DNA of 64,000 bases from Polyangia bacterium (GCA_050304755.1 JBNLED010000113.1:4376-68375); one strand, 5' to 3'. Positions 40,790 to 64,000 are shown, numbered from the stretch's first letter. Notes: generated by a model not told the origin, from the letters alone. Translations and numbers: made by a program.

Positions 40790-41944
40790 TCACAGACAAC
40801 ACCTGTAGATGGTCTCTATCAGCGGCTCGGTGTAATCGGTCATCCGCCGCTGGACAAACGCGCGGGACGCCAGCCGGACCAGCCGGTCGATATCCGGGCT
40901 CGGGGTTCCGGCTTCGGCGAAGGTCACCGGGGTGCCGATGTGCCGGTAGTAGCGACGGAGGGCCTCCGCGAGCGCCTCCGGAGAGCCCGTCTCTCCGAAC
41001 ACCGCCTCGAAGAAGCGACCGATGCGCCTTTCGTGCCGCTCGCCGACCACCCGGATCCACGCGGGGATGACCACGGAGAGCCCGGCGCCGTGGGGCATGT
41101 CGTAGACGGCGCTCATCGGCATCTCCAACGCATGGCAGGGCATGGAGGGATCGGGGATACCGGCCTGACAGATGCCGCTCCAGCCCAGGGTGGCCGCCCA
41201 CATGAACGCCGCCCGGGCGTCGTAGTCGTCGGGGCGCGCCAGGAGGGTCTCCATGGCCTCCACGGTGCCCCGGGCCACCCCCTCGATGAGGTTGTCCTGC
41301 ATCGGCAGCCGTTCGGCGGGGGTGGTGAAGTAGGCCTCCATCACGTGGGAGAGGATATCCGTGCAGGCGAAGGCGGTCTGCCGCGGCGGCAGGGAGAAGG
41401 TGGTCTCGGGGTCGAGGAACGACACCCGGGGGTTCAGCACGCCGGGGCAGACCAGGGCGTTCTTCTCCGCGGTCTCCTCGTTGGTCACGACGGTGATGCC
41501 GTTCATCTCCGAGCCGGTGGCGGGGAGGGTGAGTACGGCGACCAGCGGGAGAGGGGATTTGGGCGCGGCCCGTCCGGCGAAGAGCTCCCAGACATCCGCC
41601 CGAATCCCGGTCCCCGCGGCGATGGCCTTGGCCTCGTCGATGACGCTGCCGCCGCCGACCCCGCACACCCCGTCCACGCTCTCGGCCCGCGCCGTCTCGA
41701 TGCCCGCCCGCACATGGGAGAGCACCGGGTTTCCGCGGACCCCGGGGTGCTCCACGACGGTGACGCCGCGACTCTTCAGCGAGGTCGCCACGGTCTCGTA
41801 CACTCCGTTTCTATGGATGCTCCCGCCGCCGTAGACCAGCAGGACCTTCTTTACGCCGAGACGCCTGAGGGCGATCCCGAGGCGGGGGATCACCCCCCGG
41901 CCGAACTGGATCTCCGTCGGGTTGACATAGGTGAACGGTTTCAT
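40790..41944 (-). CDS. Iron-containing (group III) alcohol dehydrogenase
   Basis: The product MKPFTYVNPTEIQFGRGV... has a Gly-rich NAD motif (GGGSVIDEAKAIAAG) and His-rich metal-site motifs. The length of 384 aa is typical. Confidence 0.8.
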   Translation of the reverse strand: MKPFTYVNPTEIQFGRGVIPRLGIALRRLGVKKVLLVYGGGSIHRNGVYETVATSLKSRGVTVVEHPGVRGNPVLSHVRAGIETARAESVDGVCGVGGGSVIDEAKAIAAGTGIRADVWELFAGRAAPKSPLPLVAVLTLPATGSEMNGITVVTNEETAEKNALVCPGVLNPRVSFLDPETTFSLPPRQTAFACTDILSHVMEAYFTTPAERLPMQDNLIEGVARGTVEAMETLLARPDDYDARAAFMWAATLGWSGICQAGIPDPSMPCHALEMPMSAVYDMPHGAGLSVVIPAWIRVVGERHERRIGRFFEAVFGETGSPEALAEALRRYYRHIGTPVTFAEAGTPSPDIDRLVRLASRAFVQRRMTDYTEPLIETIYRCCL

Positions 41945-44900
41945 CGATTCCTCCCTTCCTGGTCGAGTCGTGTCATCATCTTCTGCAGGCCGTACCGGGA
42001 GACGCCGAGGAGCTTGGCCGCGGCGGTCTGGTTTCCCTCGGTTCGCTTGAGGGCGGCGGCGATGAGGCGCCGCTTCAGACGATCCACCTGCCGGGACATA
42101 TCGAGATCGATAGTGGCCTCCGAGAGGCGGCTGACGTCGGAGACGATCTCCTCCGAGAGGTGGGAGAAGTCGATGACATCGCCCGAGAGCACCAACGCCC
42201 GGATGATCTCGTTCTCCAGCTGTCGGACATTTCCGGGCCAGTGGAAGTCCATGAGGGCTTCGATGGCCGCCTTGGAGATCTGCTTCCGTTTCCGGCCGCG
42301 GTGCTTCTGAATGAAGTGGTCCGCCAGGAGGGGAATATCCTCCCGCCGCTTTCGGAGCGGGGGCAGCTCGATGCGGATGACGTTCAGCCGGTAGAAGAGA
42401 TCCTCCCGGAATGATCCCTGCTTAACCCGGGCCTGCAGACCCATGTTGGACGCCACCAGGATGCGCACGTCCACCCGAACGGTCCGGGCGCCGCCCACGG
42501 GGCGCACCTCGCCGTCCTGGAGCACGCGGAGCAGCTTGGTCTGCATGGAGAGGGGCATCTCGGCGATCTCGTCCAGAAACAGGGTCCCGCCGTCGGCCTC
42601 GACGAAGAGCCCCCGGTTGTCGGAGACCGCGCCGGTGAACGCCCCCTTGACGTGGCCGAACAGCACCGACTCCAGCAGGGTCTCGGGGATGGCCGCACAG
42701 TTCTCCGCCACGAAGGCCTTCCGCTTCCTTCGCCCGTTGAAGTGGATGGCCCGGGCCGCCAGCTCCTTGCCTGTACCGGACTCCCCTTCGAGGATCACCG
42801 GGACATCCCCGTCCACCACCTTGTCGAGCACGCGGAACACCTCGGCCATGGGCTTGGATCGGGCGACGATATCATCGTACCGGTACTTGGTGATCAGCTC
42901 GTCCGTGCGCTTCTCCAGCTCCCCGCGGACCCTGGCGAGCTCCCCCTCCCGGGTCTTCAGCTCGGACTCCAGCTCCCGGTTCAGCCGCTCGATGCGCTGC
43001 TGCCGCTGGCGGTTCTCCGCCCTCAGGCGAGCGTTGGTGAGGGCGATGGCCGCCTGGGTGGCCAGGGCCTCCAGGAGCGCGATGCGCCCGTCGTCGAAGC
43101 GCCCCCCGCGCCGGCTGTCGAGATAGATCGTGCCGATGACGGTCCCCCTGACCCGGAGGGGAACCGCGACGATGTACCGGAGGTTCAGGTTGACCACGCT
43201 CAACCGGTCGTGGAACCGCTCGTCCTCCGACGCGTCGGTGGTGAGCACCGGCTCCCCGAGGGTGAAGGCCCGCTTCGCCACAGTTCGTGAGAAGCTCCGC
43301 TCCCCCGGGACGAGGGACTGCTGATCCATGTTCCGCGCGCTTCGGACCTCGAGGTCGTCCGCGCCGTTGACGATGAGCAGGAAGCCCCGCTCTGCGCCCG
43401 TGATATCGACGGCCGCGTCCATGATCATGTCGAGAAGCCGCCCCACACGGACCTCCGAATTGAGGCGCGCGTTGATTCGGACCAGGTGCTCCCAGCTCGC
43501 CTCGAAGGGCGACTTGGAGGCGGCGCTGTCGGTATCCGCGATCATCTTCATCTCCTTGAGCAGTGAGGTCTCCTCCGGGCGGTGGATCGCCGGAGTCTGC
43601 GCCCGTGTCCAGTGAATGAGCTGCACCGCCGACCGGGCCAGGGCGCCGGCGTGATCGGAGAGGCGGAGCTTCGAGGCGCACCGCGCGGCGGTGACGAAAG
43701 CCCTCACATGGTCCGATCGCAGGGGCTCCCCGGGAGCCGGGAGCGAATCGAACAGCGCGTCGAACGCGGGCCGCGGCTCTCCGGCGCCGAGGAGGGCCGC
43801 CTCGACCATCAGCCGCCGGTGCTCCAGGTGGAGAAAGGGGGCTTCGTCCCGACCGGCGGTCACCTGGGCGAGCCACTCGGAGGCCCGGCGGCGATCCCCC
43901 TGCTTCAGCCCCAGGGCGGCGAGGTGCAGCCGGCTGGTGGCGAGCTCCTGGGCAGCCCCGGCCTTCGAGGCGACCGCCTCTGCCTCGGAGAGGACGGTCT
44001 TCGCGGCCTTGAGCTTCCCGAGGTGAATCAGTACGTCCCCTTGCACACAGAGCGCCAGGGCCAGCGCCCGCCGGTCGTCCGAGCGCTTCGCGTCCGCCAC
44101 GGACCGTCCCGAGGCCGACTGGGCCGTGTCGACATCCCCGATGCGCAACAGGAGCTCCGCGTAGTTCGCCCCGGCCCGGGCGATCTCCGAGGGACGACCG
44201 ATGATCCGCAGCATCCTGAGACCGCTCCGGTAGGCCGCGAGGGCGTCCGGGATGCGGCCCAGCTCCGTCAGGGCCGCCGCGAGGTTCACCGCATAGGTCG
44301 CGCCGCCGTGGCGGTCTCCGGCCCGCTCAGCCAGGTCCAGGGCCGCCTGATAGCTCGCGAGGGCCCGATGCCACTTTCCGGCGGTATGGAACACCATCCC
44401 GAGGAGCCCGTTGAACCGCGCCAGCGTTCTGAGATCCCCGAGGGTCACGGCGATGTCCAGCCCGGCTTCGAAGAGCGCCCGGGCCTGCTCGGTCTCTCCC
44501 CGGGCGAGGGCGATGAGTCCGCGGGTGGAGAGGGCGCCTGTGCGGACCGGATCGGCGGCCCGAAGGTCATCAATCCCCTCGAGAAGGACGGCGGCGGCGG
44601 CGAGGTCTCCGCTGTCGAAGGCGGTCCTGGCGGCGATGGCCCGGGCCTCCGCCGCGACCTCCGCGGACCTCGACCGCATGAGGTCGTCGAGCAGGGACGC
44701 GGCCTCATCGGCGGCGCCGGCCAGTCTAAGGGCCGCCGCGCGCTCGAGGGTGGCCCTCGGCGCCAGGGCGCCGCCCCGCTCCTCGACCTCGCGGGCCAGC
44801 GAGATGGCCCGATCGTATTGGCCGGTCTGTCGGCACACCTTCGCGAGCTCGGTCTGCACCGCGCTCCGCTCTTCGGGCGGAAGCGCCATCCCGGCGAGCA

Positions 44901-46971
44901 GGGTCAGCTGGTCCGCCGCCCCCAGGAGGTCCCCCGAGGCCCGCAGCACCGCGGCCCCCGCCCTCGCGAATTCCGCGGCCTTCTCCGTCATCCCGGCCTG
45001 GGCGGCGTATCGGGCCAGCCGGCCCGGATCGCGAAAGGGGCGTCGCTCCAGAACAGCGAGGACGGCGGTGCTCAACGCGCGGGTGCGCGACGGGGTGAGG
45101 GTCCGTCTGAGTCCGGCGGCGACCAGCCTCTTGAGGATGAGCTCGCCGTCATTCCGGTGGAGCCATCCCTTCCGTTCCAGCTCGCGAATCGCTGAAAAGA
45201 GATCGTCGACTTCCTTTATATTGGCGATTATTGCGAGCTCATCGCCGGTGGCGGGACCGTCCAGCACCGCGAGAGACTCCGCGACGGCCAGCGCCGGAGC
45301 AGAGAGCCCCTCCAGAAATCCCTCGAGGATCAGGTCATCCAGGGTATCGGACAGATCCAACGACTCGAGGCTCTTAGCCGCGACTATCCCGTCCGGCCGG
45401 AGCGCCAGGAGCGCCGCCAGAGCGGCCTCCGTGAGCAGCGGAAGCCCCCCGGTCATCTGATGGAGACGCTCCGCCATGCGATCATCGGGAGCCCGCCCCA
45501 GCGCGTGGCGGATGATCGCTCGTTCGTCATCCGCGCCAAGCGGCGACACCGGAATCCGCGCCGGCCCACCGCCCGGCTCGGCGGTGTCGCGGTCGGAGGT
45601 ATCCCGACGCTCCGCGGCGATGGCCAGCGCTTCCCCGTCCGCAGGCAGCCCGTTCAGCCGCCGGATCAGCTCCCCCACCAGAGGAGAATCCCCGTCTTCA
45701 ATCAGCACCGCGCTCGGGTGCTTCAGCCGGAGCAGGGTGTCCGCGATCTCCGCCAGAAGGGCGTCGTGCCCCGGCTCCCCGGCGCGCTTCTCGTCCGAGA
45801 CCACGCCGCTGATCCAGGTGGACAGATGGTGCAAAGAGCCTCCCCGCGAGGGGGCAATCCGCCGCATCAGCTCCCGGAGGGAGCCCGAGAAGAAGCTCAT
45901 GGGCCTGTCCCCGTTTCTGACCGCCGCCAGTTGGGCCTCCACCACCGCCGCGCGGAAGAGTCGGGTCTTGCCGACGCCGGGAGCCCCCGCCAGCCACAGG
46001 GTTCGGGTCGTTCGGTGGTCGTCGTCCGAAGAGGCCGCGCCTTCCAGCCATTTCACGAGGAGGGAGAGCTCCCCGTCTCTCCCCACCAGGTTCGGAGAGC
46101 GAACGCGGGCCGCCCGGGTGGTGGGGGTGGCGGTGTCGCTGGCCGCATCGATGAGCTCGGTCCGCTGGTCGTCCCCGAGCACCCCGGCCCCCGCGGCTCG
46201 GGCCAATGCGAGGAGGGTCTCCCGCGCGGATTGGGGGCGCCGCTCCGGCAGCGGATGGACAAGCTTCGCGGTCAGCTCCCAGAGCTTCGCGGGGACATGT
46301 GCCGGCGCGGGCCCGATGGGTCCGGCCACCAAGGGCGGCGCCTCTCCGGTTAGGAGCTCCCGAAGGGTGACGCCGAGGCTGAACAGGTCGGAGCGCTCGT
46401 CGAAGAAGCCATGGAGGGCCTCCGGGGGAGTGTACCCCAGGGTGCCCGCCCTGAGCCCGTCGAGGGCATCCTTGTGCGTCGAGAGGCCGAGGTCGATAAG
46501 CTTGACGAGCTTTCCGCCGTTCCCCACCAGGATGTTCGAGGGTTTGACGTCCCGGTGGAGCAGGCCGTGTCCGTGGATGAGCTCCAGGGCCCGTGCCACC
46601 GCCACGCAGAGCGCGGCCGCCCGGGCGGGGCGTTCCGCCTTCGGCAGGCCGGAGAACTGAAGCTGGCACGATTCTCCCGGGACGAGCTCCTGGGTGAAGA
46701 ACACCGCGCCCTTCGGGATGGTCAGCGCGCCGTCAATCGACTGAACGACATCGAGATCGTACACCCGGGCGAGGTGAGGGTGCTCGAGCCGCTTGGCCTG
46801 CGCGAACTCGAATCGGAACAGGGACTCCATCGACGCCTCGTGGAGCACCTTGAGCGCCACCCGTTCGTTCCCACCGAGAGTATCCTCCACCGCCAGCACC
46901 ATCGCCTGGGCGCCCCTGCCGAGCTCACGGACGACCCGGTATCGATGGTTGATGATGTCGCTTTTGCTCAT
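41941..46971 (-). CDS. Multidomain regulator (about 1676 aa) with an N-terminal Ser/Thr kinase, an AAA/NACHT-like P-loop, a TPR-rich region, a GAF domain, a sigma-54-interaction AAA+ domain and a Fis-type HTH
   Basis: The start ATG 46971 has a GAGGA ribosome-binding site. The kinase motifs are ELGRGAQAMV, ALKVL, HRDVKPSNILV and DLGLS. The P-loop is WLAGAPGVGKTRLF. The sigma-54 module contains VLILGESGTGKELAARAIH, GAFTGA, GTLFLDEI and FREDLFYRLNV. The HTH is NQTAAAKLLGVSRYGLQKMM. Confidence 0.8.
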   Translation of the reverse strand: MSKSDIINHRYRVVRELGRGAQAMVLAVEDTLGGNERVALKVLHEASMESLFRFEFAQAKRLEHPHLARVYDLDVVQSIDGALTIPKGAVFFTQELVPGESCQLQFSGLPKAERPARAAALCVAVARALELIHGHGLLHRDVKPSNILVGNGGKLVKLIDLGLSTHKDALDGLRAGTLGYTPPEALHGFFDERSDLFSLGVTLRELLTGEAPPLVAGPIGPAPAHVPAKLWELTAKLVHPLPERRPQSARETLLALARAAGAGVLGDDQRTELIDAASDTATPTTRAARVRSPNLVGRDGELSLLVKWLEGAASSDDDHRTTRTLWLAGAPGVGKTRLFRAAVVEAQLAAVRNGDRPMSFFSGSLRELMRRIAPSRGGSLHHLSTWISGVVSDEKRAGEPGHDALLAEIADTLLRLKHPSAVLIEDGDSPLVGELIRRLNGLPADGEALAIAAERRDTSDRDTAEPGGGPARIPVSPLGADDERAIIRHALGRAPDDRMAERLHQMTGGLPLLTEAALAALLALRPDGIVAAKSLESLDLSDTLDDLILEGFLEGLSAPALAVAESLAVLDGPATGDELAIIANIKEVDDLFSAIRELERKGWLHRNDGELILKRLVAAGLRRTLTPSRTRALSTAVLAVLERRPFRDPGRLARYAAQAGMTEKAAEFARAGAAVLRASGDLLGAADQLTLLAGMALPPEERSAVQTELAKVCRQTGQYDRAISLAREVEERGGALAPRATLERAAALRLAGAADEAASLLDDLMRSRSAEVAAEARAIAARTAFDSGDLAAAAVLLEGIDDLRAADPVRTGALSTRGLIALARGETEQARALFEAGLDIAVTLGDLRTLARFNGLLGMVFHTAGKWHRALASYQAALDLAERAGDRHGGATYAVNLAAALTELGRIPDALAAYRSGLRMLRIIGRPSEIARAGANYAELLLRIGDVDTAQSASGRSVADAKRSDDRRALALALCVQGDVLIHLGKLKAAKTVLSEAEAVASKAGAAQELATSRLHLAALGLKQGDRRRASEWLAQVTAGRDEAPFLHLEHRRLMVEAALLGAGEPRPAFDALFDSLPAPGEPLRSDHVRAFVTAARCASKLRLSDHAGALARSAVQLIHWTRAQTPAIHRPEETSLLKEMKMIADTDSAASKSPFEASWEHLVRINARLNSEVRVGRLLDMIMDAAVDITGAERGFLLIVNGADDLEVRSARNMDQQSLVPGERSFSRTVAKRAFTLGEPVLTTDASEDERFHDRLSVVNLNLRYIVAVPLRVRGTVIGTIYLDSRRGGRFDDGRIALLEALATQAAIALTNARLRAENRQRQQRIERLNRELESELKTREGELARVRGELEKRTDELITKYRYDDIVARSKPMAEVFRVLDKVVDGDVPVILEGESGTGKELAARAIHFNGRRKRKAFVAENCAAIPETLLESVLFGHVKGAFTGAVSDNRGLFVEADGGTLFLDEIAEMPLSMQTKLLRVLQDGEVRPVGGARTVRVDVRILVASNMGLQARVKQGSFREDLFYRLNVIRIELPPLRKRREDIPLLADHFIQKHRGRKRKQISKAAIEALMDFHWPGNVRQLENEIIRALVLSGDVIDFSHLSEEIVSDVSRLSEATIDLDMSRQVDRLKRRLIAAALKRTEGNQTAAAKLLGVSRYGLQKMMTRLDQEGRNR

Positions 46972-47211
46972 CGATTCCTCTGACTGATGCGCACCCATCA
47001 AATAGCAACTTTGTTGCCATAGACTCCAGCAAGTTGACGCTAAACTCATTATAAAGACAAGATAACGAATATCAAACGATTGAATGACACCAGACCCGAA
47101 TGCATGGCAACTGGATTGTCACACCCGACGGATCCTCGGCCATTGTCCCCGGATTCCGCAATCGACCCCAGCCGCCTTGTGGACGGCTTCCCCCGATGAT
47201 ACACAAGTTTT

Positions 47212-52303: not shown

Positions 52304-52484
52304 CGCCGATGTCGTCTCCGCCGGGGTATTCTTTCCAGCTTACCCTATTTCGCGATTTCGTGCAGAGGGGAATCCGGTCGAACGGCTCACAGGTCCGCCA
52401 TGGCCCACACGAGGAAATGCCCCTCGACTATTTGACGCTATCCCCTATAATACCCGTAAATTTTTTGCAGGGGAGGATGGTAAG

Positions 52485-53297
52485 ATGACGATTGTCACGA
52501 TTTCAAGAGGCTCTTTCAGTATGGGAAGAGCCGTCGCCGAGAAGGCGGCGAAGCGCCTCGGGTTCGAGTGCCTCAGCAGGGATGTGTTGCTGGAGGCGAG
52601 TGACAAGTTCAACATCCCCGAGATCAAGCTCGTGAACGCCATCATCGATACCCCGTCGCTCCTCAACCGGTTCACCCACGGACAGGAGAGCTACATCGCG
52701 TACATCCAGAGCGCCCTGACCCGTCACCTCTGCAAGGACAACATCGTCTATCACGGCCTCGCCGGACACGTGTTTCTCAAGGAAGTATCCCACGTGCTCA
52801 AGGTGTGCATCGTCGCGAACCTCGAGACCCGGGTCGCCAACCTGATGGAGAGCGAGGAGGTGACTGAGCGGGAGGCCGCCACGTGGATCTCCAAGGTGGA
52901 CAAGGAACGGCGGAAGTGGACGCAGCAGCTGTACGGGGTCGACCCGTGGGATCCCCTGCTCTACGACCTCGTCATCAAGATTGACCGGTTCGATATAGAT
53001 GATGTCGTAGAGACCATTTACCAATCCGCGCGGCTTCCCCGATTCCGGACAACCAAGGAGTCCCAGCTCGGCTTGGAGGATCTGGCCCTCGCATGCGAAA
53101 TCAAGGCCGAGCTCCTCGGCAAACATCCCGGGATATCGGTCACCAGCACCGGCGGCAACGTGATCCTGTACGTGGACACGGGGGATCACAACGCCCGCCG
53201 GCTCAAGGGCAGCGTGAACAACCTCAGGACAAAGGTAAAGGGCATCAATAATATAGAGATTCACGAGGGCGCGCCGTCCCCGCCCGGGGCCGTGTAA
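52485..53297 (+). CDS. Cytidylate kinase-like family protein
   Basis: A GGGAGG ribosome-binding site lies 6 nt upstream of ATG 52485. A TATAAT hexamer lies at 52446-52451. The product MTIVTISRGSFSMGRAVAEKAAKRLGFECL.. has the architecture of the AAA_28/cytidylate-kinase-like family. Confidence 0.6.
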   Translation: MTIVTISRGSFSMGRAVAEKAAKRLGFECLSRDVLLEASDKFNIPEIKLVNAIIDTPSLLNRFTHGQESYIAYIQSALTRHLCKDNIVYHGLAGHVFLKEVSHVLKVCIVANLETRVANLMESEEVTEREAATWISKVDKERRKWTQQLYGVDPWDPLLYDLVIKIDRFDIDDVVETIYQSARLPRFRTTKESQLGLEDLALACEIKAELLGKHPGISVTSTGGNVILYVDTGDHNARRLKGSVNNLRTKVKGINNIEIHEGAPSPPGAV

Positions 53298-53390: not shown

Positions 53391-56300
53391 ATGTCGATTC
53401 TAAAGCGCGTCTTTCCCTTCCTCACCTGGTTCGAGAAGTACACCCTTGCCACGCTCCGCGCCGACTTCATTTCCGGCCTGACCGTCGCCCTGGTGCTGGT
53501 TCCCCAGTCCATGGCGTATGCCCAGCTGGCCGGCCTTCCGGCGTACTACGGCCTGTACGCCGCCTTCCTCCCGCCGGTGATCGCGAGCCTCTTCGGATCC
53601 AGCCGGCAGCTGGCCACCGGACCGGTGGCCGTGGTCTCCCTGATGACCTCGGCCTCCCTCGAGCCCCTCGCCACCGCCGGGAGCGAGCAGTTCATCGCCT
53701 ACGCCCTGCTGCTGGCCCTGATGGTGGGCGTGTTCCAGTTCTCCCTGGGCATCCTGAAGCTCGGCGTGGTGGTCAACTTCCTGTCCCACCCGGTGGTCAA
53801 CGGGTTTACCAACGCGGCAGCGCTCATCATCGCCACCTCGCAGCTCTCGAAGATCTTCGGCGTGTACGTGGACAAGGCCCCGCACCACTACGAGACCATC
53901 TACCGCATCTTCCTGGCGGCGGTCCACTACCTCCACTGGCCCACTTTGGCCATGGCCACCCTCTCCTTCCTCACCATGATCGCGCTCCGCCGCGTCAACA
54001 AGCGCATCCCCCAGGTGCTCATCGCGGTGGTCATCACCACGGTCATCGCCTGGGTCGCGGGCTTCGAGCAAAACGCGGTCGTCGGCGCGGGTCGAATTGA
54101 ATCCCCCGAGGTGAGGACGCTCATCGATCGCTTCAACGAGGCCGTCCACGCCCGCGAGGTGTTCGAGATCCAACGGGGCGAGGACAAGAAGACCTGGACC
54201 GCTCTCACGACGGATCGGCGGGAGCTGTGCGCGCGGTGTCACGACGCCCCGGACATGGCGCATCTCAACGGCGGGATACACTCGACCGCCGCCGCCCACG
54301 AGAAGGAGCTCCTCGTGCTGCACGATCTGGCCGGTCTGTTCGACGATCACATCGCGCACGTCAAGCAAACCATCTCCGCCCGCCGCGGCGAGCTCCGCGC
54401 CCTGCTGCTGGAGCGCGCGACCGCCGAGGACGGCCCGCGATTCTATCTCCCGGGGGAAGCGCCCGAGGATCTCCCGGTGGACGGCGCCTGGCGGATCGCC
54501 GTAGGGGACAAGCCCCTGAACCCCGAGGCGCTGAAGCTCGCCGGCGGCGGCGCCGTGGTGGGGAGCATCCCCGAGGGGTTGCCCGGATTCAAGAAGCCCG
54601 TCCTCGACTGGAATATCATCGGCGAGCTGGCGGCGGCGGCGATCATCATCTCGCTGCTCGGCTTCATGGAGGCCATCTCCATCGCCAAGGCCATGGCCGC
54701 CCGGACCCGGCAGAAGCTCGATCCCAACCAGGAGCTCATCGGGCAGGGGCTGGCCAACATCCTCGGCTGCTTCGGCCAGAGCTACGCGGTGTCGGGATCC
54801 TTCTCCCGATCGGCGGTCAACTTCCAGTCCGGGGGGCGGACCGGTGTGTCCAACGTCTTCTCGAGCCTCTTCGTGATGGTGGTGCTCCTCTTCCTGTCGA
54901 AGGGCCTCTACCACCTCCCCCAGGCGGTGCTCGCCTCGGTCATCATGATGGCGGTCTTCGGGCTCATCAACGTCGGCGGCTTCGTCCATGCCTGGCGGAC
55001 CAGCCGGTTCGACGGCGCGGTGACCCTCATCACCTTCGTCGGCACCTTCGTCTTCGCCCCCCACCTCGAGTGGGGCATCTGCATCGGCGTGGTGCTCTCC
55101 CTCGGCGGGTACCTCTACCGCACCATGCGGCCCAAGGTCATCACCCTCGCCCCCCACCGGGACGGGGCGATGATGGACATCAAACGGCACGGGCTCAAGA
55201 GCTGCCGCCACATCGCCGTGGTGGGCTTCGACGGCCCGCTCAACTTCGCCAGCACCAACTACCTGGAGAGCGCCATCCTCTCCCGCGTCCTGAAGTTCCC
55301 GGAGCTGAAGCACCTGCTCATCTCGGGCAACGGCGTCAGCGAAATCGACGCCTCCGGGGAGGAGACCCTCCGGAACCTGGTGGACAACCTCACCGACACG
55401 GGCTGCGCGGTCTCCTTCTCCGGTTTCTCCGACAAGATCATCGACGTCCTCAAGCGATCCCACTTCTATGATCGGGTCGGGGAGGGGAGCTTCTTCCGGA
55501 ACCGCGCCCAGGCCATCGCGGCGATCTACCCGGCGGCCCACGCCGACAGCCAGGAGGAGGAGTGCCCCTACCGGCTGATCATGCCGCCCCTGGTGGAGCT
55601 GTCGCTGCACGAGGACGGATCGCTGCGGAACGCGGAGCATCACCTCCTGCGCACCTGCCGCCACATCACGGTGCTCCGCTTCGACGGGCCGTTGACCTTC
55701 GCCAACGCCGCCTACATGGAGCAGGAGATCCTCGCCAGCCTGACGGACCGGCCGTCCATCAGCCACGTGCTGCTCGTGGCCCACAGCATCAACCGCATCG
55801 ACGACTCCGGCGCCGAGAAGCTGGGGGAGCTCGTCACCCGCCTTCGGAAGGACGGCTACGCGGTCGCCTTCAGCGGGCTCAAGGAGGAGGTCGTCCACGT
55901 CCTCGAGCGCACCCGTGTGGCCGAGGTCATCGGCTTGGAGAACCTGTTCCCGACGCAGGTGGTGGCGGTCGCGGGGATCTACGCCCGCGCCCATATGGGC
56001 TCCTCCGAGACGGACTGCCCCCTCGTGGACCTCTCTCACCGGCTCACCGAGCTGTCGCTCACCGAGAGCGGGAGCCTCAGAAGCGCCGAACGGCTCGGGC
56101 TCGGGCTGTGCCGCCATATCGCCGTGCTCCGGTTCGACGGGCCGCTGCCCCTCTCCCACTTCAGGGCGAGCCAGTCCGAGTTCATCCGATGGGCCAAGAC
56201 GAGGCCGGAGGTGGAGAACATCGTCTTCGCGGGGCAGGCCCTCGACAAGATGGATCGCGTCGAGGCCGAGAACCTGGCGGCCCTCGTGGCCGCGGTCCGG

Positions 56301-56960
56301 GAGGCCGGCTACCGCGTCTCCCTGACCGGCTTCTCCGAGCGGGCCCTCGAGGCGCTCACCCGGAGCCGGGTCATCGAGTCCATCGGCATCGACTCCTTCT
56401 ACCACTCCGAGGCCCTGGCCATCGCAAAGATGTTCACTGACGCCCACACCAGCGACGAGAACGAGTCGTGCCCGCTGAGGGGGCTGCTCCCCAAGCTGGT
56501 GGAGGTATCGAAGCACGACGACGGGTCGTTCAGGTGCGCGAGCCGCAATCACCTGGCGCTATGCCGCCGCATCGCGGTGATTCGGTTCGAGGGGATCCTT
56601 AACTTCTCGACCTTCAGGTACTTCGAGAAGGCGCTCCGCGAGATCATCAACGCGCGATCGTCCGTCAATCATCTGGTGATCGCCCTGCACTCGATGAGCG
56701 GACTGGATGTCAGCGCGGCCGAGGAGCTGCTGCTCCTCCTCGAACGTTTGAGGAGAGAGGGCTACCGGGTCGGCATCAGCGGCCTGAAGGACGACGACCT
56801 GGAGACCCTGCTGCGGGCCAACCAGGGCGACCCCATCGGCGGTGAGGTGATCTTTCCGAGCCAGGCCATCGCCATCGAGCGCCTCCACGCCGAGGCGCAC
56901 CGGAACTCGGACGAGGCCCCCTGCCCTCTCCTCGAGGTCGTTCCGGCGCCGGCGGAGTAG
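53391..56960 (+). CDS. SulP/SLC26-family anion transporter (1189 aa) with an approximately 180-aa insertion in the membrane core and four tandem C-terminal STAS domains
   Basis: The SulP N-terminus is FISGLTVALVLVPQSMAYAQLAGLPAYYGLYAAF. Multiple transmembrane segments are present. Four repeats of the type CRHIAV(V/L)(G/R)FDGPLNFA...G(Y/C)AV(A/S)(F/L)SG(F/L)... each end in AHxxS(D/Q)EExCPL. Confidence 0.85.
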   Translation: MSILKRVFPFLTWFEKYTLATLRADFISGLTVALVLVPQSMAYAQLAGLPAYYGLYAAFLPPVIASLFGSSRQLATGPVAVVSLMTSASLEPLATAGSEQFIAYALLLALMVGVFQFSLGILKLGVVVNFLSHPVVNGFTNAAALIIATSQLSKIFGVYVDKAPHHYETIYRIFLAAVHYLHWPTLAMATLSFLTMIALRRVNKRIPQVLIAVVITTVIAWVAGFEQNAVVGAGRIESPEVRTLIDRFNEAVHAREVFEIQRGEDKKTWTALTTDRRELCARCHDAPDMAHLNGGIHSTAAAHEKELLVLHDLAGLFDDHIAHVKQTISARRGELRALLLERATAEDGPRFYLPGEAPEDLPVDGAWRIAVGDKPLNPEALKLAGGGAVVGSIPEGLPGFKKPVLDWNIIGELAAAAIIISLLGFMEAISIAKAMAARTRQKLDPNQELIGQGLANILGCFGQSYAVSGSFSRSAVNFQSGGRTGVSNVFSSLFVMVVLLFLSKGLYHLPQAVLASVIMMAVFGLINVGGFVHAWRTSRFDGAVTLITFVGTFVFAPHLEWGICIGVVLSLGGYLYRTMRPKVITLAPHRDGAMMDIKRHGLKSCRHIAVVGFDGPLNFASTNYLESAILSRVLKFPELKHLLISGNGVSEIDASGEETLRNLVDNLTDTGCAVSFSGFSDKIIDVLKRSHFYDRVGEGSFFRNRAQAIAAIYPAAHADSQEEECPYRLIMPPLVELSLHEDGSLRNAEHHLLRTCRHITVLRFDGPLTFANAAYMEQEILASLTDRPSISHVLLVAHSINRIDDSGAEKLGELVTRLRKDGYAVAFSGLKEEVVHVLERTRVAEVIGLENLFPTQVVAVAGIYARAHMGSSETDCPLVDLSHRLTELSLTESGSLRSAERLGLGLCRHIAVLRFDGPLPLSHFRASQSEFIRWAKTRPEVENIVFAGQALDKMDRVEAENLAALVAAVREAGYRVSLTGFSERALEALTRSRVIESIGIDSFYHSEALAIAKMFTDAHTSDENESCPLRGLLPKLVEVSKHDDGSFRCASRNHLALCRRIAVIRFEGILNFSTFRYFEKALREIINARSSVNHLVIALHSMSGLDVSAAEELLLLLERLRREGYRVGISGLKDDDLETLLRANQGDPIGGEVIFPSQAIAIERLHAEAHRNSDEAPCPLLEVVPAPAE

Positions 56961-56974
56961 GTTACCAGGTTAGG

Positions 56975-58891
56975 TTACCACCCCAGCTCGGCCTCGAGAC
57001 GCTCGGCGAGGGTGTCGGCCATGGCCCGATGGGCGGCGAGATCCGGGTGGCCGTCACATCCCGACCAGTTGATGGCCCCGAGCTCGATCTTCTCCACGTT
57101 GGCGTCCCCCAGGTCGGCGATGATCTCATCAATCTCGTCGCTGAAGGCATCGCCCGCCGTGTTGACGGCGCAGAGGATGTAGGCGTCGGGATAGTAGCCC
57201 CGAAGGCGGGTCACGAATGCCACGTACGCCTCGATATAAGTGTCGCGGTCGACACCGCCGGCGAAATCATTGGTGCCGAGATTGATGACGATGGCGTCGG
57301 GGATGTAGTCGGCGTAGTCCCAGCTGGTCTGGCTGTCCTCGGGGAGGGCGTAGCCGTAGAGGTCCGGCAACAGGTTCTCGGTGCCGCCGTCCGTGTTCGC
57401 CGCCATCCCGTTCCCTGACCACGCCTCCACATGGGCGACGGCCCCCAGCTGCCGCGCCGCCAACGGGCCGTAGGCCGCCGACCCGATCTCGGTGGCCGCG
57501 GAGAACGGGCAGCCGTCATTACCGTAGCCCGCCGATATGGAGTCGCCGATGATCTCGATTCTCCGGCTGAAGGGCGGGGGGGACTCGATGAGGCGTCCGT
57601 TCTCGGCCGCGAACCCGTGGAACCTGACGACGCCGAACATCGCCTCCGGATTTCGATAGAGCTGGACATCGTGCTCCCCCGCCGACAGGTCCTCGGCGAC
57701 GCGGTAGGTCTGCGGGGTCGGATCGCTGCTCCACTCCCACCCCTCGGTGGTGATCTCGGTATACGGCTCGCCGTCGAGCACGACCTGAAACGTGATGGCG
57801 CCAGCGCCGGAGAGCTGAACGTCCAGCGCGTCCCCCTCGAAGCGCACGCCGAACCCGCAGTTCGACCACGCGCACCCCGGGGCGTCCGGATCGCGCCGGT
57901 CGAAACGACCGAAGTAGTGAACCTCCGCGGTCGGGCCGAGGTCGGACGTGTCGGTATCGATTTCCGTGTCGGGGATCTCCGTATCGGGGATCTCCGTATC
58001 GGGATTCTCCGTGTCAGTGATGTCTGTGTCGGGAATGTCCTCCGTGTCGGGGACATCCTCCGTGTCGGGAACGTCCTCCGTGTCCCCCACAGCACCCTCG
58101 GTCAGGAAGATATCATCCAAATCGACGACGACCCGCCCCTCACCGCTGTACAGAATGATTCCGGCGACCTGGGACAGGTCCACATCTTGCGAGACCGATG
58201 AGATATCAATATCAAAGGCCTGGTAGTCACCCTCGAGCTCGAGGGTCACCGACGATCCGAAGTTATATTCCGCCCCGCTCACGAAGACGAGCGCCAGCGA
58301 CACATCGGCCGCCGGCTCGCCCTTGGCCCGCATCGACAAACGGGTCGCCGCGGTCCAGTCCCTCGTCTCGTGCGAATAGAAGTAATACACCACCGCGCCC
58401 CAACCGTCCGAGGTGACCACGTCTGCCCGGAGGTGGTTGGGGGCGGAATACGGATCCTCGTCGCTCTCGGAGATACTCGAGCTGCCGTCCCATGCCTCGC
58501 CCGAGGCGTAGGGGACCGTCTCGCCGTCGTAGAGTATCGTCCCGGTGGGGGGCGCCGCCGTATCCCGCCCGGAGTCACCGACTTCATCCGAGTCGACCGA
58601 ATCGGTCTCCTCGGGATTGTCGGTCTCCTCGGGGATATCGGTCTCCTCGGGATTGTCGGTCTCCCCGTCAGGGGTGTCGGTCTCCGCGTCAGGGGTGTCG
58701 GTTTCCGCGTCGGGGACGTCAGTAGCGCCCGGGTCGTCGCTCTCCTCATCGGTCTCCTCATCGACCGAATCACCTCCCGGGTTCCCAACGGATTCACTCT
58801 CCGAGGCGCTGTCCGTGTCGGTGTCAACGTCTCCCTGGTCGTCATTGCATCCGAGCATCAGCAGAAGCACGATTGTCCAAAGACATTTCAT
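56975..58891 (-). CDS. SGNH/GDSL-type hydrolase lipoprotein (carbohydrate esterase-like) with two acidic (ETDxP/EDVPDT)n repeat tracts and an N-terminal beta-sandwich
   Basis: The start ATG 58891 gives MKCLWTIVLLLMLGCND, which carries a lipobox. The GDS block is IEIIGDSISAGYGN. The catalytic DxxH is CDGHPD. An INLGTNDF block is also present. Confidence 0.75.
   Translation of the reverse strand: MKCLWTIVLLLMLGCNDDQGDVDTDTDSASESESVGNPGGDSVDEETDEESDDPGATDVPDAETDTPDAETDTPDGETDNPEETDIPEETDNPEETDSVDSDEVGDSGRDTAAPPTGTILYDGETVPYASGEAWDGSSSISESDEDPYSAPNHLRADVVTSDGWGAVVYYFYSHETRDWTAATRLSMRAKGEPAADVSLALVFVSGAEYNFGSSVTLELEGDYQAFDIDISSVSQDVDLSQVAGIILYSGEGRVVVDLDDIFLTEGAVGDTEDVPDTEDVPDTEDIPDTDITDTENPDTEIPDTEIPDTEIDTDTSDLGPTAEVHYFGRFDRRDPDAPGCAWSNCGFGVRFEGDALDVQLSGAGAITFQVVLDGEPYTEITTEGWEWSSDPTPQTYRVAEDLSAGEHDVQLYRNPEAMFGVVRFHGFAAENGRLIESPPPFSRRIEIIGDSISAGYGNDGCPFSAATEIGSAAYGPLAARQLGAVAHVEAWSGNGMAANTDGGTENLLPDLYGYALPEDSQTSWDYADYIPDAIVINLGTNDFAGGVDRDTYIEAYVAFVTRLRGYYPDAYILCAVNTAGDAFSDEIDEIIADLGDANVEKIELGAINWSGCDGHPDLAAHRAMADTLAERLEAELGW
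57945..58085 (-). repeat. Coding tandem 15-18-nt repeat (ggggatctccgtatc...) encoding (PDTEI/EDVPDT)n
   Basis: The repeat is a direct sequence observation. Confidence 0.6.
58590..58730 (-). repeat. Coding tandem approximately 21-nt repeat (gtcggtctcctcgggattgtc...) encoding (ETDxPEETDxP)n
   Basis: The repeat is a direct sequence observation. Confidence 0.6.
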
Positions 58892-59163
58892 AGCGGATCC
58901 TTTCTTTCCAAATGAACGGGTCAGGAATTCGGCCATTAGGGAACAGCGGACAACAAGACTCCAGAAACCTGTCTTTCCGTTCATAAATTGAATATCATCT
59001 ATTGATTACACTTGAAACAGAAAAATCTTACAACACCACCCGTGCCCCCTGGGCTTACACCCTAGGATGCCCTGGGATGCACCCAGCCACGGGTGAGTCC
59101 ACGCAGTCCAATGATGTCCAATGGCTAGTGCCCCCTCTGAAGCCTGTACAGGTCGAAGAGAGT

Positions 59164-59615: not shown

Positions 59616-60956
59616 TCACATCTCGATGCCGTGTTTCTTCATCTTCCGCCACAGGGTGGTTCGGCTGATACCGAGTGAGCGCGCTGTCTCCCCCACATGT
59701 CCACCCGCGTCCACCAGGGCCTTCCGGATGACTTCGGCCTCGGCCGAGGCGAGCCCGGTGGGGGGCTTCACGGCGCCGCCTTCCCTGTCGACGCGGTCGT
59801 TCACCCGGATATCCTCGGGCAGGTGGTCCATCTCGATCGTGTCCCCGTGGCTCAAGACGAAGCCGTACTCGATGATGTTCTCCAGCTCCCGGACGTTGCC
59901 GGGGAAGGCGTATCGCATGAGGAACGCCATGACCTCCGAGGAGACCCCCAGGATATTCTTCCCGCGCTTGATGTTGAACCGCTGGACGAAGTGATCCACC
60001 AGCAGCGGGATGTCCCCGCGGCGCTCCGAGAGGGGGGGGATGTTCATGCGCACCACCGCGAGCCTGAAGTAGAGATCATCCCGGAACTCCCCCTGGGCCA
60101 CCAGGTCGGAGAGCTTTCGGTTGGTGGCCGCCACCACCCGGACGTCCGCCCGCACCGATCGGACGCCGCCGAGGGGCTCGTACTCCCGCTCCTGGAGCAC
60201 CCGGAGCAGCTTCACCTGAGTGGCGAGGGGCAGCTCGCTCACCTCATCGAAGAAGATGGTGCCCCCTTCGGCGCGGGCGATACGGCCGGGTTTGTCCTGC
60301 TTGGCGTCCGTGAACGCCCCCCGCGTGTACCCGAAGAGCTCGGACTCGAAGAGGTTGGTGGGGAGGGTGCCGGAGTTCACCACGATATAGGGGGCCTTGC
60401 GCCGGGTGCTCAGGTTGTGCACCGCCCGGGCGATGAGCTCCTTCCCCGATCCGCTGGGCCCCTCGATGAGCACCGTGGCGTCGCTCTCCGCAATGTCGGG
60501 CAGGATGCGGAACATCTTCTGGAACGCCTCGCTCTTGCCCACGATATCCTCGAAGGTGTACTGGTGGGTGATCTCCCTTCTCAGCTGTTCGATGGCGGAC
60601 TTGTCCCGGAAGGTCTCCACCGCTCCAACCATATTACCGTCGCTGTCGTACATCGCGGCGGTGCTCACGCTGATCGGCACGGAGCGCCCGCGACTGTTCA
60701 GGATTCGCGCGGGCAGGTCGATCTGCTCCAGGCCCGTCTCGAGGGTCTGCCGGATGGCGCAGCCGGCCTCGCAGATGTTGGCGTGGAATACATCCGCGCA
60801 GCGCTTTCCCATGGCGCGGTCCTTGGGCACCCCGGTGATCCGCTCGGCGGCCCGGTTGAAGGAGGTGATCCGCCAATTCCGATCGACCGTAAACACACCG
60901 TCCGCCACGGAGTTCAGGATGGTTTCGAAGAATTGTCGCTCTTTTTCCGTGCTCAT
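59616..60956 (-). CDS. Sigma-54-dependent Fis-family transcriptional regulator with an N-terminal PAS domain
   Basis: The PAS segment is ILNSVADGVFTVDRNWRITSFNRAAERITG. The AAA+ sigma-54 module is VLIEGPSGSGKELIARAVH, GAFTDA and GGTIFFDEV. The C-terminal HTH is ETARSLGISRTTLWRKMKK. Confidence 0.88.
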   Translation of the reverse strand: MSTEKERQFFETILNSVADGVFTVDRNWRITSFNRAAERITGVPKDRAMGKRCADVFHANICEAGCAIRQTLETGLEQIDLPARILNSRGRSVPISVSTAAMYDSDGNMVGAVETFRDKSAIEQLRREITHQYTFEDIVGKSEAFQKMFRILPDIAESDATVLIEGPSGSGKELIARAVHNLSTRRKAPYIVVNSGTLPTNLFESELFGYTRGAFTDAKQDKPGRIARAEGGTIFFDEVSELPLATQVKLLRVLQEREYEPLGGVRSVRADVRVVAATNRKLSDLVAQGEFRDDLYFRLAVVRMNIPPLSERRGDIPLLVDHFVQRFNIKRGKNILGVSSEVMAFLMRYAFPGNVRELENIIEYGFVLSHGDTIEMDHLPEDIRVNDRVDREGGAVKPPTGLASAEAEVIRKALVDAGGHVGETARSLGISRTTLWRKMKKHGIEM

Positions 60957-62014: not shown

Positions 62015-62602
62015 GTGACACAACACGCTCTAAAACAGACCGAAATCGAAACCGAGATCATCCGTGCGGCCTTTGGCGGCGACGGCCGGGCGTTTCACCA
62101 AATCGTGAAACGATACCAGGGGCCGGTCTACAACCTCTGCTACCGGTTCACCCAAACGGACGCGGAGGACGCGGCCCAGGAGACCTTCGTGAAGGCGTTC
62201 CTCAACCGGAGGCGCTTCGACCCCGCACGACCGCTCCTCCCGTGGCTGCTCACCATCGCGAGGCGGCTCTGCATCGACCGGTCCAGGCGGAGGGGACCGC
62301 GGTTTCACGACCTTCTGGACGACGAACGCCTGGCGGACGACGGAATCCCGGCGGACGATCGGCTGGACCAGAAGGAGACGGTCTCCCTGCTCTCAAAGGC
62401 CCTCGATACCCTGCCGGAGGGACAACGGGAGGCGGTTGTGCTACACCATGTGGAGGGCCTCGCCTACAAGGAGGTAGCCGAGGTCCTGGAGGTCCCCATG
62501 GGCACGGTGATGACCTGGCTCCATCGGGGACGCGCCCGATTGGAGGCGTGTGTGAATGAGATGAAGCAAGGTGGATCACTCGAGAGGGGAGGAATGGGAT
62601 GA
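62015..62602 (+). CDS. ECF-subfamily RNA polymerase sigma-70 factor
   Basis: Region 2 is YQGPVYNLCYRFTQTDAEDAAQETFVKAF. Region 4 is LPEGQREAVVLHHVEGLAYKEVAEVLEVPMGTVMTWLHRGRARL. Confidence 0.85.
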   Translation: MTQHALKQTEIETEIIRAAFGGDGRAFHQIVKRYQGPVYNLCYRFTQTDAEDAAQETFVKAFLNRRRFDPARPLLPWLLTIARRLCIDRSRRRGPRFHDLLDDERLADDGIPADDRLDQKETVSLLSKALDTLPEGQREAVVLHHVEGLAYKEVAEVLEVPMGTVMTWLHRGRARLEACVNEMKQGGSLERGGMG

Positions 62603-63003
62603 ACGACCGGAGGAAATCCGAGCCCGGCGCCGAGGAATTCGCCCGCGCGCTCATCGCCGTCGCATCGCGGCCGCTCCCCGGTGACTTCGCCCGCCGGACC
62701 ACCGCCCGTTTCGAGGCGACGGTCGCCAAACGCCGACGCCGGCGGCTCATCATCGCCATCACCACTACCTGTCTGCTCGGAATGGCGGGGGCCTGGGCGC
62801 TGCTCCTGGACGCCTTCGGGCTGACCGGAGCGATTCGGGACAGCCTCATCGATACCGCGGTGGTCATGGACTCCCTCATGACCCTCTGGTCCCACCTCCC
62901 CACCATGGGAGTTCTGTTCAGCGTCGGGTTGATGGCCCTGGTGCTCCTTAACTACGCCCTGCTCTCCAAGCTCGGCAACGGCGCGGGACAATTGGACCGG
63001 TAG
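62599..63003 (+). CDS. Putative membrane anti-sigma factor
   Basis: The start codon overlaps the sigma-factor stop codon in an ATGA arrangement. An N-terminal cytoplasmic segment is followed by transmembrane helices (LIIAITTTCLLGMAGAWALLL; VLFSVGLMALVLL). Confidence 0.5.
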   Translation: MNDRRKSEPGAEEFARALIAVASRPLPGDFARRTTARFEATVAKRRRRRLIIAITTTCLLGMAGAWALLLDAFGLTGAIRDSLIDTAVVMDSLMTLWSHLPTMGVLFSVGLMALVLLNYALLSKLGNGAGQLDR

Positions 63004-63135: not shown

Positions 63136-64000
63136 GTGAAAAAAGACAAGCCCAAAGTCCTCATCGTCGATGACCGGGATCGATACGTGGAGCTGGCCCA
63201 CGCCCTGCTGCGGGATTATGAGTACGCGACCCGGTGTGAGCTCGCCGGGCCCTGCTGGGAGTGTCCGGCAAGGGAGGGGTGCATTCTCACCCACGCCCAT
63301 GACTGGGCCGAAACCGCTCAGGCGCTGGATCGGCATCCGGATGTGGACGTGGTGCTCCTCGATTTGACCTTCGACCTTCCGGAGGAGCGTCTCATTATGA
63401 CCGACGGCGGGCTGTCCCGTAGCCGGCGGCTCCAGGGCATCGAAATCCTCAAGCGGCTGAGGGAGCGCCACGGCGATCTGCCGGTGGTGCTCATGACCTC
63501 CATGGAGGAGCTCCGGTTCGAGGACGCCGCCGAGTCCCTCGAGGTGGACGAGTTCGCGGTGATGGCCGGGGCGGATGCCTTCGACGCCAGGGCCGTGGGG
63601 ATGCTGGTGGAGCGAATCCTGGCGCGGAAGGCCGAGGTCCGGGGGGCGTCGACCTATCGGTTCGGCGGCTCATCGGAGATGAAGCGGATCCGCTCGGACG
63701 CCCTGAATCTGGCCAGGACCTCCCTGCCCATGCTGATCACCGGGGAGCCCGGCACCGGAAAGAGCGCCCTCGCCGAGCAGGAGATCCACCCCGCCACCGG
63801 CCGGGACGGCCCCTTCGTAGCGTTGGATCTCGGCGCCATCCCCGAGACCCTCATGGCCGCCGAGCTGTTCGGCAGCGCGAGGGGGGCTTTCAGCGGCGCC
63901 GTGGATCGGGCCGGCGCCTTCGAGCACGCGGCCGGTGGGACGATATTCCTCGACGAGATCGGAAACCTCCCCCTGGAGGTCCAGCGGATGCTGCTGGTGA
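63136..64000 (+). CDS. Sigma-54-dependent response regulator (NtrC family); 5' part, continuing beyond the window
   Basis: The start is GTG 63136 with an AAGG ribosome-binding site. The receiver-like N-terminus is KVLIVDDRDRYVELA...VVLLDL...LPVVLMTSM. The AAA+ module contains PMLITGEPGTGKSALAE, GAFSGA and GGTIFLDEIGNLPLEVQ. Confidence 0.75.
   Translation, partial: MKKDKPKVLIVDDRDRYVELAHALLRDYEYATRCELAGPCWECPAREGCILTHAHDWAETAQALDRHPDVDVVLLDLTFDLPEERLIMTDGGLSRSRRLQGIEILKRLRERHGDLPVVLMTSMEELRFEDAAESLEVDEFAVMAGADAFDARAVGMLVERILARKAEVRGASTYRFGGSSEMKRIRSDALNLARTSLPMLITGEPGTGKSALAEQEIHPATGRDGPFVALDLGAIPETLMAAELFGSARGAFSGAVDRAGAFEHAAGGTIFLDEIGNLPLEVQRMLLV

Follow-up and report, generated by a model that had tools for sequence, protein, structure and literature searches.

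A SulP/SLC26 transporter with four tandem STAS domains, each carrying a conserved Cys/His/Cys-Pro site, from a Polyangia bacterium

The 64,000-nucleotide stretch of DNA from a Polyangia bacterium analysed here (GCA_050304755.1, JBNLED010000113.1:4376-68375; the whole stretch is referred to as the window) encodes, on the plus strand at 53391..56960, a SulP/SLC26 transporter of 1189 residues that ends in four tandem STAS domains. Canonical SulP/SLC26 proteins (AtSULTR4;1, SLC26Dg, BicA, DauA, Rv1739c and prestin) have one such domain, whereas this protein has four in tandem and its multi-STAS relatives 2 to 6. This architecture, which had been proposed in a sequence-only reading of the window and is borne out by four separate Pfam matches, gap-free alignment and BLAST, is near certain. 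Every unit contains the same set of Cys, His and Cys-Pro residues. A combined picture, in which each unit would hold a metal centre and the array would act as a docking scaffold for partners encoded close by, is in our assessment evenly poised. The new subfamily differs further from the canonical proteins in a 160-residue hairpin between transmembrane helices TM7 and TM8, in the Cys/His/Cys-Pro extension of the STAS domain and in a linkage to PF13189 and phosphorelay genes. In the literature searched, no SulP protein with several or tandem STAS domains was found to be described, and the phrase 'two STAS domains' there always denotes the pair of protomers in a dimer. Both families, SulP/SLC26 and STAS, are already known; the tandem array, the STAS extension, the periplasmic hairpin and the PF13189/phosphorelay linkage appear to be undescribed.

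Transporter core and tandem STAS array

The open reading frame is uninterrupted, has a G+C content at third codon positions (GC3) of 0.94 and is preceded by a ribosome-binding site (GAGG) 8 nt 5' of its ATG. The protein is matched by the Pfam family Sulfate_transp (PF00916; E = 2e-101, 339.8 bits against a cut-off of 23.2) and passes the NCBIfam model TIGR00815 for sulP (528 bits against a cut-off of 380); it fails the NCBIfam equivalog models for DauA (283 against 614) and BicA (151 against 880). An AlphaFold2 (AF2) model with a predicted local distance difference test score (pLDDT) of 80.6 was compared with solved structures using Foldseek, which matched around 45 SLC26 structures at E < 1e-10. 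The membrane domains of SLC26Dg and BicA share its fold with template-modelling scores (TM-scores) of 0.81-0.86 (5iof, 0.86; 6ki1, 0.81; normalized to the target), and the core has the 7+7 inverted-repeat UraA-type fold.

The best-matching solved relative is AtSULTR4;1, a plant symporter of H+ and sulfate (E = 2e-80), in which four residues that surround the sulfate (Q112, Y116, S392 and R393) and one that serves proton coupling (E347) have been tested (PMC8298490). All five residues are kept, as Q39, Y43, S472, R473 and E427, respectively. Gln39 and Tyr43 lie in the first part of the core, TM1-TM7 (residues 1-226, 53391..54068, plus strand; delimited by Pfam profile positions 1-224 and the alignment with 7lhv), and Glu427, Ser472 and Arg473 in the second, TM8-TM14 (residues 387-579, 54549..55127, plus strand; delimited by the 7lhv alignment and residue mapping). 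The five are 96-100% conserved in the family: Gln39 and Tyr43 reach 100%, and Glu427, Ser472 and Arg473 are kept in 77 of 80 homologues and in all single-STAS forms examined (70/70). The 1189-residue protein is a genuine SulP/SLC26 oxyanion transporter and, as judged from its sequence, is probably functional. Because these sulfate- and proton-coupling residues are retained, the core looks like that of a working, cation-coupled, sulfate-type oxyanion transporter.

The Pfam STAS profile (PF01740) matches four distinct stretches of the protein (E = 6e-41); the C-terminal cytoplasmic STAS region of SulP/SLC26 proteins (TC 2.A.53) is present, in four copies against the normal one. The start motifs quoted in the sequence-only reading lie at residues 605, 756, 907 and 1058 and the end motifs at residues 716, 867, 1018 and 1169, and the period is therefore exactly 151 residues. 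The four units together span 55128..56939 on the plus strand. Unit 1 (residues 580-730, 55128..55580; candidate ligands Cys605, His717 and Cys725-Pro726) is proximal to the transporter and has a D-A-S-G-E loop. Unit 2 (residues 731-881, 55581..56033; candidate ligands Cys756, His868 and Cys876-Pro877) is modelled with a pLDDT of 82-91, and unit 3 (residues 882-1032, 56034..56486; candidate ligands Cys907, His1019 and Cys1027-Pro1028) is the most divergent. Unit 4 (residues 1033-1183, 56487..56939; candidate ligands Cys1058, His1170 and Cys1178-Pro1179) is followed by a tail of six residues. All of the copies had been read as ending in AH-x4-E-x2-CPL, but unit 1 ends in CPY.

The units align without gaps at 31-40% identity, compared with 7 ± 2% (maximum 15%) for shuffled controls, and unit-against-unit BLAST gives E values of 1e-23 to 8e-41. 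A BLAST of the tail against itself returned the identity match only; the repeats are established by the ungapped alignment, by the unit-by-unit BLAST and by hidden Markov models (HMMs). The STAS domain of chicken prestin superposes with an r.m.s.d. of 1.9 Å (Foldseek), and each unit is a SulP-type STAS domain. The STAS module of the subfamily comprises 151 residues, with a C-terminal tail that folds back on the domain. The DNA of the units is only 51-59% identical, and the duplication is therefore old and not the product of collapse or expansion during assembly.

The best 120 database homologues are all SulP proteins with multiple STAS units, of which a unit HMM counts four in 84 proteins, three in 25, two in 4, five in 4 and six in 3; the unit is 151 residues long in every homologue counted in this way. 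More than 100 homologue clusters from independent assemblies carry 2 to 6 units, some of them on contigs of 2-3 Mb, and long multi-STAS SulP proteins thus occur in other genomes, where the sequence-only reading had proposed to look for them. Their source names are generic ('SulP family inorganic anion transporter' or 'STAS domain-containing protein'). In an exhaustive profile search of 1.84 billion cluster representatives, all full-length multi-STAS proteins fell into one 50%-identity cluster; the multi-STAS family is therefore compact in sequence, though present in several phyla. When reference genomes were scanned, multi-STAS forms turned up in metagenome-assembled genomes labelled Acidobacteriota (Thermoanaerobaculia and Holophagae), Myxococcota, Chondromyces, Planctomycetales and 'Deltaproteobacteria'.

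Some matches from these searches were set aside (homologous proteins and loci carry internal labels of the form P#### and L###, respectively). P0172, with 13 'stretches' in the exhaustive search, is a leucine-rich-repeat protein, and P0269, with 18, has no Pfam match at all; neither is a STAS array, and both matches were regarded as spurious. Short multi-unit matches such as P0121 are fragments of SulP genes.

The reference-genome scan also yielded 72 relatives of ~705-750 residues with one copy of the 151-residue unit, from Desulfobacterota, Nitrospirota, Ignavibacteria and others, a few of them from cultured strains. These single-STAS members, which include proteins of Desulforhabdus sp. TSK and Desulfosudis oleivorans, resemble the multi-STAS forms in the module itself, with Cys25, His137 and Cys145-Pro-Leu (numbered within the unit), in the scaffold of the TM7-TM8 insert and in their neighbouring genes. 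They differ in having a single unit, most of them with an additional Cys in a CPLxxVC motif, a short insert that lacks CxxCH and a co-directional operon. They possibly correspond to the SulP proteins of '700-900 aa' that Marietou et al. 2018 (PMC5840216) placed in clade Ai. Another candidate for a single-STAS form is DVU1999 of Desulfovibrio vulgaris.

Identity is higher among units at the same position (0.45-0.57) than between positions (0.31-0.42), and the best match of every single-copy unit (72/72) is position 1. Proteins with three units have the order 1-2-4 or 1-2-3, and in those with five or six the extra units are position-2-like and position-4-like, the position-3 type being missing. 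By sequence comparison, then, orthology among the units follows their position, position 1 being the counterpart of the one STAS domain in the ~710-residue relatives. Unit 1 is the ancestral STAS domain, and the entire module was tandemly duplicated long ago in one branch of the subfamily, giving 2 to 6 units.

The Cys/His/Cys-Pro site and the periplasmic insert

In 448 units from 120 homologues Cys25 (the Cys of the 'CRHI' start motif), His137, Cys145 and Pro146 are 100% conserved and Glu142 is 91% conserved. Even at position 3, where just 18 columns are at least 90% conserved, the Cys, His and Cys-Pro residues remain at 100%. The sequence-only reading was right to call the His and Cys of the end motif invariant, but it missed the invariant Cys of the start motif and did not link it to the C-terminal motif. 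In the 72 units of single-copy relatives Cys25 is conserved in 100%, His137 in 97% and Cys145-Pro146-Leu147 in 100%. The spacing of the site is C-x111-H-x7-CP, and the set occurs in no solved STAS structure. In the AF2 model His137 is located at the end of the last helix and the Cys-Pro pair in the tail loop, with a pLDDT of 85-89.

Mean-field direct coupling analysis (DCA) was carried out on 602 units with an effective number (Meff) of 421. The analysis recovers the expected β-sheet contacts (29-59, 30-63, 31-66, 61-95, 64-96 and 65-98) and couples the flanks of Cys25 with those of Cys145 (columns 27-140, rank 3; 8-147, rank 6; 23-144; 26-142). Among diverse representatives 65 have both cysteines, 36 have neither and 16 have one only, a distribution that points to joint gain and loss. 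A further Cys at +6 (CPLxxVC) gives a Cys3His set in 51 of 69 single-copy forms (74%) and is found in no array unit. Other branches replace His137 or have CxxCPWxxxC, and Cys4-type variants occur. His9 is conserved in 86-96% of units that follow another unit, in 61% of units at position 1 and in 39% of single-copy units.

These conservation patterns make some kind of metal site in each unit fairly probable, with Zn(II) the most likely metal and an Fe-S centre possible. The proposal in the sequence-only reading of a metal- or redox-responsive site repeated four times is reasonable, and it is strengthened by Cys25, the DCA couplings, the joint gain and loss and the Cys3His and Cys4 variants. Cys25, His137 and Cys145 would form the metal centre of each unit, and the fourth ligand would be the extra Cys in single-copy relatives and possibly Glu142 or a neighbouring His in array units. 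Such a centre would clamp the tail onto the β1-β2 hairpin and may make the domain sensitive to metals or oxidants.

ZAS anti-sigma factors bind zinc through an HxxxCxxC motif, and haem-regulatory CP motifs are normally found in flexible segments. The STAS site resembles both systems in that a regulatory domain in the cytoplasm contains a few invariant Cys and His residues, together with a Cys-Pro dipeptide. It is unlike them in its spacing, in being assembled from both ends of the STAS domain and in showing no kinship of sequence or fold.

The site could alternatively be a metal-free thiol switch in which a reversible Cys25-Cys145 disulfide locks or releases the C-terminal tail upon exposure to oxidants. 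Cys25 and Cys145 are the most persistent pair of the set, they are gained and lost jointly and their flanks co-vary; further, many of the host lineages are sulfate reducers or other anaerobes. A disulfide, however, leaves the invariant His137, the near-invariant Glu142 and the third or fourth Cys of the relatives unexplained, and we regard a switch of this type as unlikely. The conservation pattern fits a Zn-type or Fe-S centre better than it fits either a bare disulfide or a haem-regulatory CP motif.

The possibility of haem arises in two parts of the protein, the second being the insert of ~160 residues between TM7 and TM8 (residues 227-386, 54069..54548, plus strand), which splits the Pfam match to the membrane domain. 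The insert is predicted to be periplasmic from the topology of the 7+7 fold and the positive-inside rule (four Lys/Arg residues in the TM6-7 loop). Modelled alone with AF2, it forms a long helical hairpin with a small β-sheet (pLDDT 86, predicted TM-score 0.76), for which a Foldseek search of the PDB gave no hit with E ≤ 0.001. All of the subfamily shares the scaffold, of which there is a short and a long form. The long form, which is longer by 26 residues at the hairpin tip, occurs in multi-STAS proteins and in some single-STAS forms of 745 residues. At this tip lies a CxxCH motif (Cys280, Cys283 and His284; 54228..54242, plus strand) that is invariant in 80/80 four-STAS homologues and in 39/39 sequences of alignment A3. 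His311 (54321..54323, plus strand) was gained together with it, and short-insert forms lack both.

The CxxCH motif may serve as a site of covalent haem c attachment, as a Zn knuckle or as a disulfide. In favour of haem are the motif and its predicted location only: a CxxCH on the periplasmic side, as in c-type cytochromes, is present, the side being a prediction. No similarity to a cytochrome c family was found for the insert in Pfam (Cytochrom_NNT at E = 0.22, below the cut-off) or by Foldseek. None of the other 32 proteins predicted in the window contains a CxxCH, and the window therefore says nothing about the capacity for cytochrome c.

In the STAS units haem could be bound transiently, with the CP motif and the His eight residues upstream providing axial Cys/His ligation and making transport responsive to haem or gases. 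Such a haem sensor would account for the fully conserved Cys145-Pro146, which is followed by Leu, Phe or Tyr at position 147 as expected in sequence for a CP motif, and for the invariant His137, and the invariant CxxCH in the periplasmic insert of the same proteins is also in its favour. Several observations nonetheless make it improbable. The CP loop is modelled confidently (pLDDT 85-89), in contrast to the flexible segments usual for CP motifs; Cys25 supplies a further invariant Cys, one that co-varies with Cys145 and for which a haem site has no need; and relatives that replace His137 or add Cys to give Cys3His or Cys4 sets are a better fit to Zn or Fe-S. Further, no paper in the literature searched links STAS domains to haem-regulatory motifs.

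Genomic partners and the function of the array

The gene 93 bp upstream of the transporter gene (52485..53297, plus strand) encodes a PF13189 cytidylate-kinase-like protein of 270 residues (Pfam E = 4e-41). A consensus scan, which is weak evidence, places a promoter-like site upstream of the PF13189 gene (52424..52451, plus strand) and found no plus-strand terminator in the 93-bp gap, and the two genes are therefore probably co-transcribed. The protein aligns end to end with a PF13189-BON-CBS protein at locus L002 (E = 6e-49), in which BON is matched. Pfam calls no BON domain in the C-terminal part of the protein from the window, which is related to BON through the L002 homologue only. The PF13189 proteins lack the Walker A sequence GK[ST], the consensus there being 'GSFCxxxE'; they contain a BON-related middle part and, in the relatives, usually a C-terminal receiver domain.

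Homologues of the PF13189 protein occur in 74 of 88 sources, many of whose contigs are short, and a DHp-like protein of ~230 residues with a HisKA-type H-box ('SHELKN') occurs in 60 of the 88. At single-STAS loci the genes are co-directional in the order SulP, PF13189-receiver fusion, dCache histidine kinase, ~123-residue receiver, ~230-residue protein and ~143-residue receiver, with a median gap of 21 bp (53 loci) between the SulP stop and the PF13189-receiver start. In multi-STAS genomes the genes of this module lie alongside the SulP gene in a convergent operon. The closest relatives of the transporter from the window, at L088 and L090 (69-73% identity), have a receiver-less PF13189 gene upstream, as in the window, and a convergent phosphorelay operon in addition. 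No member of the module has a DNA-binding output domain. The PF13189/dCache kinase/receiver/DHp-like module appears to be uncharacterized: the literature searched yielded no functional information on PF13189, and nothing relevant on cytidylate-kinase-like proteins that carry a receiver or a STAS domain.

In three homologues the STAS tail runs at its C-terminus directly into a receiver domain. P0035 (1323 residues) has four STAS units and the fused receiver, and the proteins at L023 (637..3079) and L025 (8001..10589) each have a single STAS domain followed by the receiver, which at L025 has the 143-residue receiver of the module as its best match (E = 3e-29). We take these fusions as 'Rosetta-stone' evidence for an action of the phosphorelay at the STAS tail.

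The arrangement invites comparison with transporter/sensor-kinase co-sensing pairs such as DctA-DcuS and BceAB-BceS. As in these pairs, the genes for a transporter and for a two-component system are tightly linked, and the system has an extracytoplasmic (here dCache) sensor and no obvious DNA-binding output. Unlike in them, the transporter here appears to be connected by way of single-domain receivers and a PF13189 pseudo-kinase-like protein, and STAS is the likely interface. No description of this PF13189/receiver/STAS wiring was found in the literature searched.

The array would be a cytoplasmic docking scaffold presenting eight STAS domains per SLC26 dimer, through which the transporter would be controlled by, or report to, its conserved genomic partners. 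One of these partners would be the PF13189 pseudo-kinase-like protein, whose gene lies immediately upstream in the window and to which most relatives add a receiver domain; the others, found in the relatives only, would be the dCache histidine kinase, the two single-domain receivers and the DHp-like protein. The multivalent regulatory platform of the sequence-only reading is plausible, but inferred only, and regulatory docking on the STAS array is a tentative proposal drawn from gene linkage and domain fusion.

Several points weigh against the combined picture. The histidine kinase and receiver genes are missing from the window, and for the 1189-residue protein the link to a phosphorelay is therefore by homology only. 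The position of the convergent phosphorelay operon of the relatives is occupied by a gene on the minus strand (56975..58984) for a predicted lipoprotein of 669 residues, in which long acidic Asp/Thr/Glu/Pro repeats (such as DTEDVPDTEDIPDTD) lie ahead of CE2_N and GDSL esterase domains. The Walker A motif of the PF13189 partner is degenerate, and gene linkage indicates shared function, not physical docking on STAS domains. That Cys25, His137 and Cys145 lie close together is deduced indirectly, from covarying neighbours and from joint gain and loss. The array units have three invariant ligands only, and the last has no following unit to supply a fourth. Finally, the substrate assignment relies on five residues, and the DauA and BicA equivalog models are not reached.

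One neighbourhood departs from this pattern of genes. A six-STAS homologue at L006 adjoins an arsenic-resistance-like cluster (2969..6373) with ArsR-type regulators, an ArsC-like low-molecular-weight phosphatase, a methyltransferase and an SBF/ACR3-type carrier, and the locus is without any PF13189 or phosphorelay gene. The presence of this cluster beside the SulP gene is possibly coincidental.

Another explanation is that the extra STAS units are a mere spacer or oligomerization stalk with structural Zn and no regulatory partner, the gene linkage reflecting co-regulation. The lack of the canonical STAS interaction loop in units 2-4, the variation in copy number from 2 to 6 and the absence of a phosphorelay at the SulP locus of the window genome are all consistent with a passive role. 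However, position-specific conservation is held across phyla, and Arg32 is 99-100% conserved in units 2-4. A receiver is fused to the tail in three lineages, and coupling to PF13189 is at the level of the operon. A passive stalk is for these reasons not a likely explanation.

An extended form of the docking scaffold can also be considered, in which the protein is a redox- or metal-sensing SLC26 'transceptor'. A covalently bound c-type haem (CxxCH and His311) at the tip of the periplasmic hairpin and a Cys/His metal centre in all four STAS units would transmit redox or metal state at either face of the membrane to oxyanion transport and, via the PF13189 pseudo-kinase and single-domain receivers docked on the array, to a dedicated phosphorelay without transcriptional output. 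We consider this extended form distinctly doubtful. If it is true, the protein would have a signalling architecture that is not known from other SLC26 proteins, and if the CxxCH motif binds haem this would be, to our knowledge, the first haem-bearing SLC26 protein.

The sequence-only reading had also suggested a partner-switching hub, in which the STAS units would behave like the antagonists SpoIIAA and RsbV, being phosphorylated by and sequestering a GHKL anti-sigma kinase and thereby coupling transport to sigma-factor activity. The units share the STAS fold with SpoIIAA and RsbV, and they align to SpoIIAA, with the phospho-Ser at column 75. Unit 1 retains the D-x-S-G loop as D-A-S-G-E, there is a weak match to TIGR00377 (anti-sigma-factor antagonist) and an ECF (extracytoplasmic function) sigma-factor gene is located 5 kb away (62015..62602). 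The phospho-loop is nevertheless 96-100% conserved only at position 1 and in single-copy forms; at positions 2-4 its Ser and Gly are lost, with Ser at most 24% conserved. The TIGR00377 match covers one stretch only and scores 47, below the cut-off of 53.45. No RsbW/SpoIIAB-type (GHKL) kinase, PP2C phosphatase or anti-sigma gene was found near the transporter in the window or at ~90 homologous loci; the genes conserved beside the transporter are instead those for PF13189 and, in the relatives, dCache histidine-kinase/receiver proteins. The domains also differ from SpoIIAA and RsbV in being membrane-tethered and in tandem, and the ECF sigma gene does not recur at other loci. The loss of the phospho-loop in units 2-4, the TIGR00377 score and the lack of cognate genes nearby therefore leave partner switching unsupported, and we judge it very improbable.

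The weakest alternative, an artefact of assembly or gene calling that fused or duplicated STAS-coding DNA, has nothing in its favour beyond the prior that tandem repeats can mis-assemble and is effectively refuted by the divergence of the repeats in DNA (51-59% identity), the continuous frame with its GC3 of 0.94 and the recurrence of the same architecture in more than 100 independently assembled clusters, those on contigs of 2-3 Mb included.

Further features of the window and significance

Downstream of the transporter lie genes for a PAS sigma-54 activator (59616..60956, minus strand), for the ECF sigma factor followed by a small open reading frame that is a possible anti-sigma factor (together 62015..63003, plus strand) and for a receiver sigma-54 activator (63136..64000, plus strand). 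The sigma-54 activators and the ECF sigma gene recur in no homologous locus and are therefore probably unrelated to the transporter. On the minus strand at 41941..47049, a protein of 1702 residues combines an N-terminal Ser/Thr protein kinase with AAA_16, TPR/MalT-like repeats, GAF, a sigma-54 activator AAA+ domain and HTH_8, that is, a eukaryote-like kinase and an enhancer-binding protein in one chain. Large open reading frames with coding-like GC3 are present on the minus strand at 1609..5343 (1244 residues), 5452..10851 (1799 residues) and 13700..19153 (1817 residues). No confident gene call was made at 11.6-13.7 kb or 19.2-22.0 kb, and the GC content of the window falls to 0.58 at 18-22 kb.

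Among the parts of SLC26/SulP proteins, whose family counts human disease genes and the sulfate transporters of plants among its members, STAS is the least understood, and its regulation of transport is still unresolved (PMC8298490). The subfamily described here offers three natural handles on this question: a STAS copy number that varies from 1 to 6, an invariant site in each copy that can be mutated, and candidate partners encoded next door, a receiver even being joined to the tail in three lineages. Cultured sulfate reducers are among the hosts of single-copy members, and the hypotheses are therefore open to genetics. If the site binds a metal or senses redox state, it would represent a new form of gating of anion, possibly sulfate, uptake in anaerobes.

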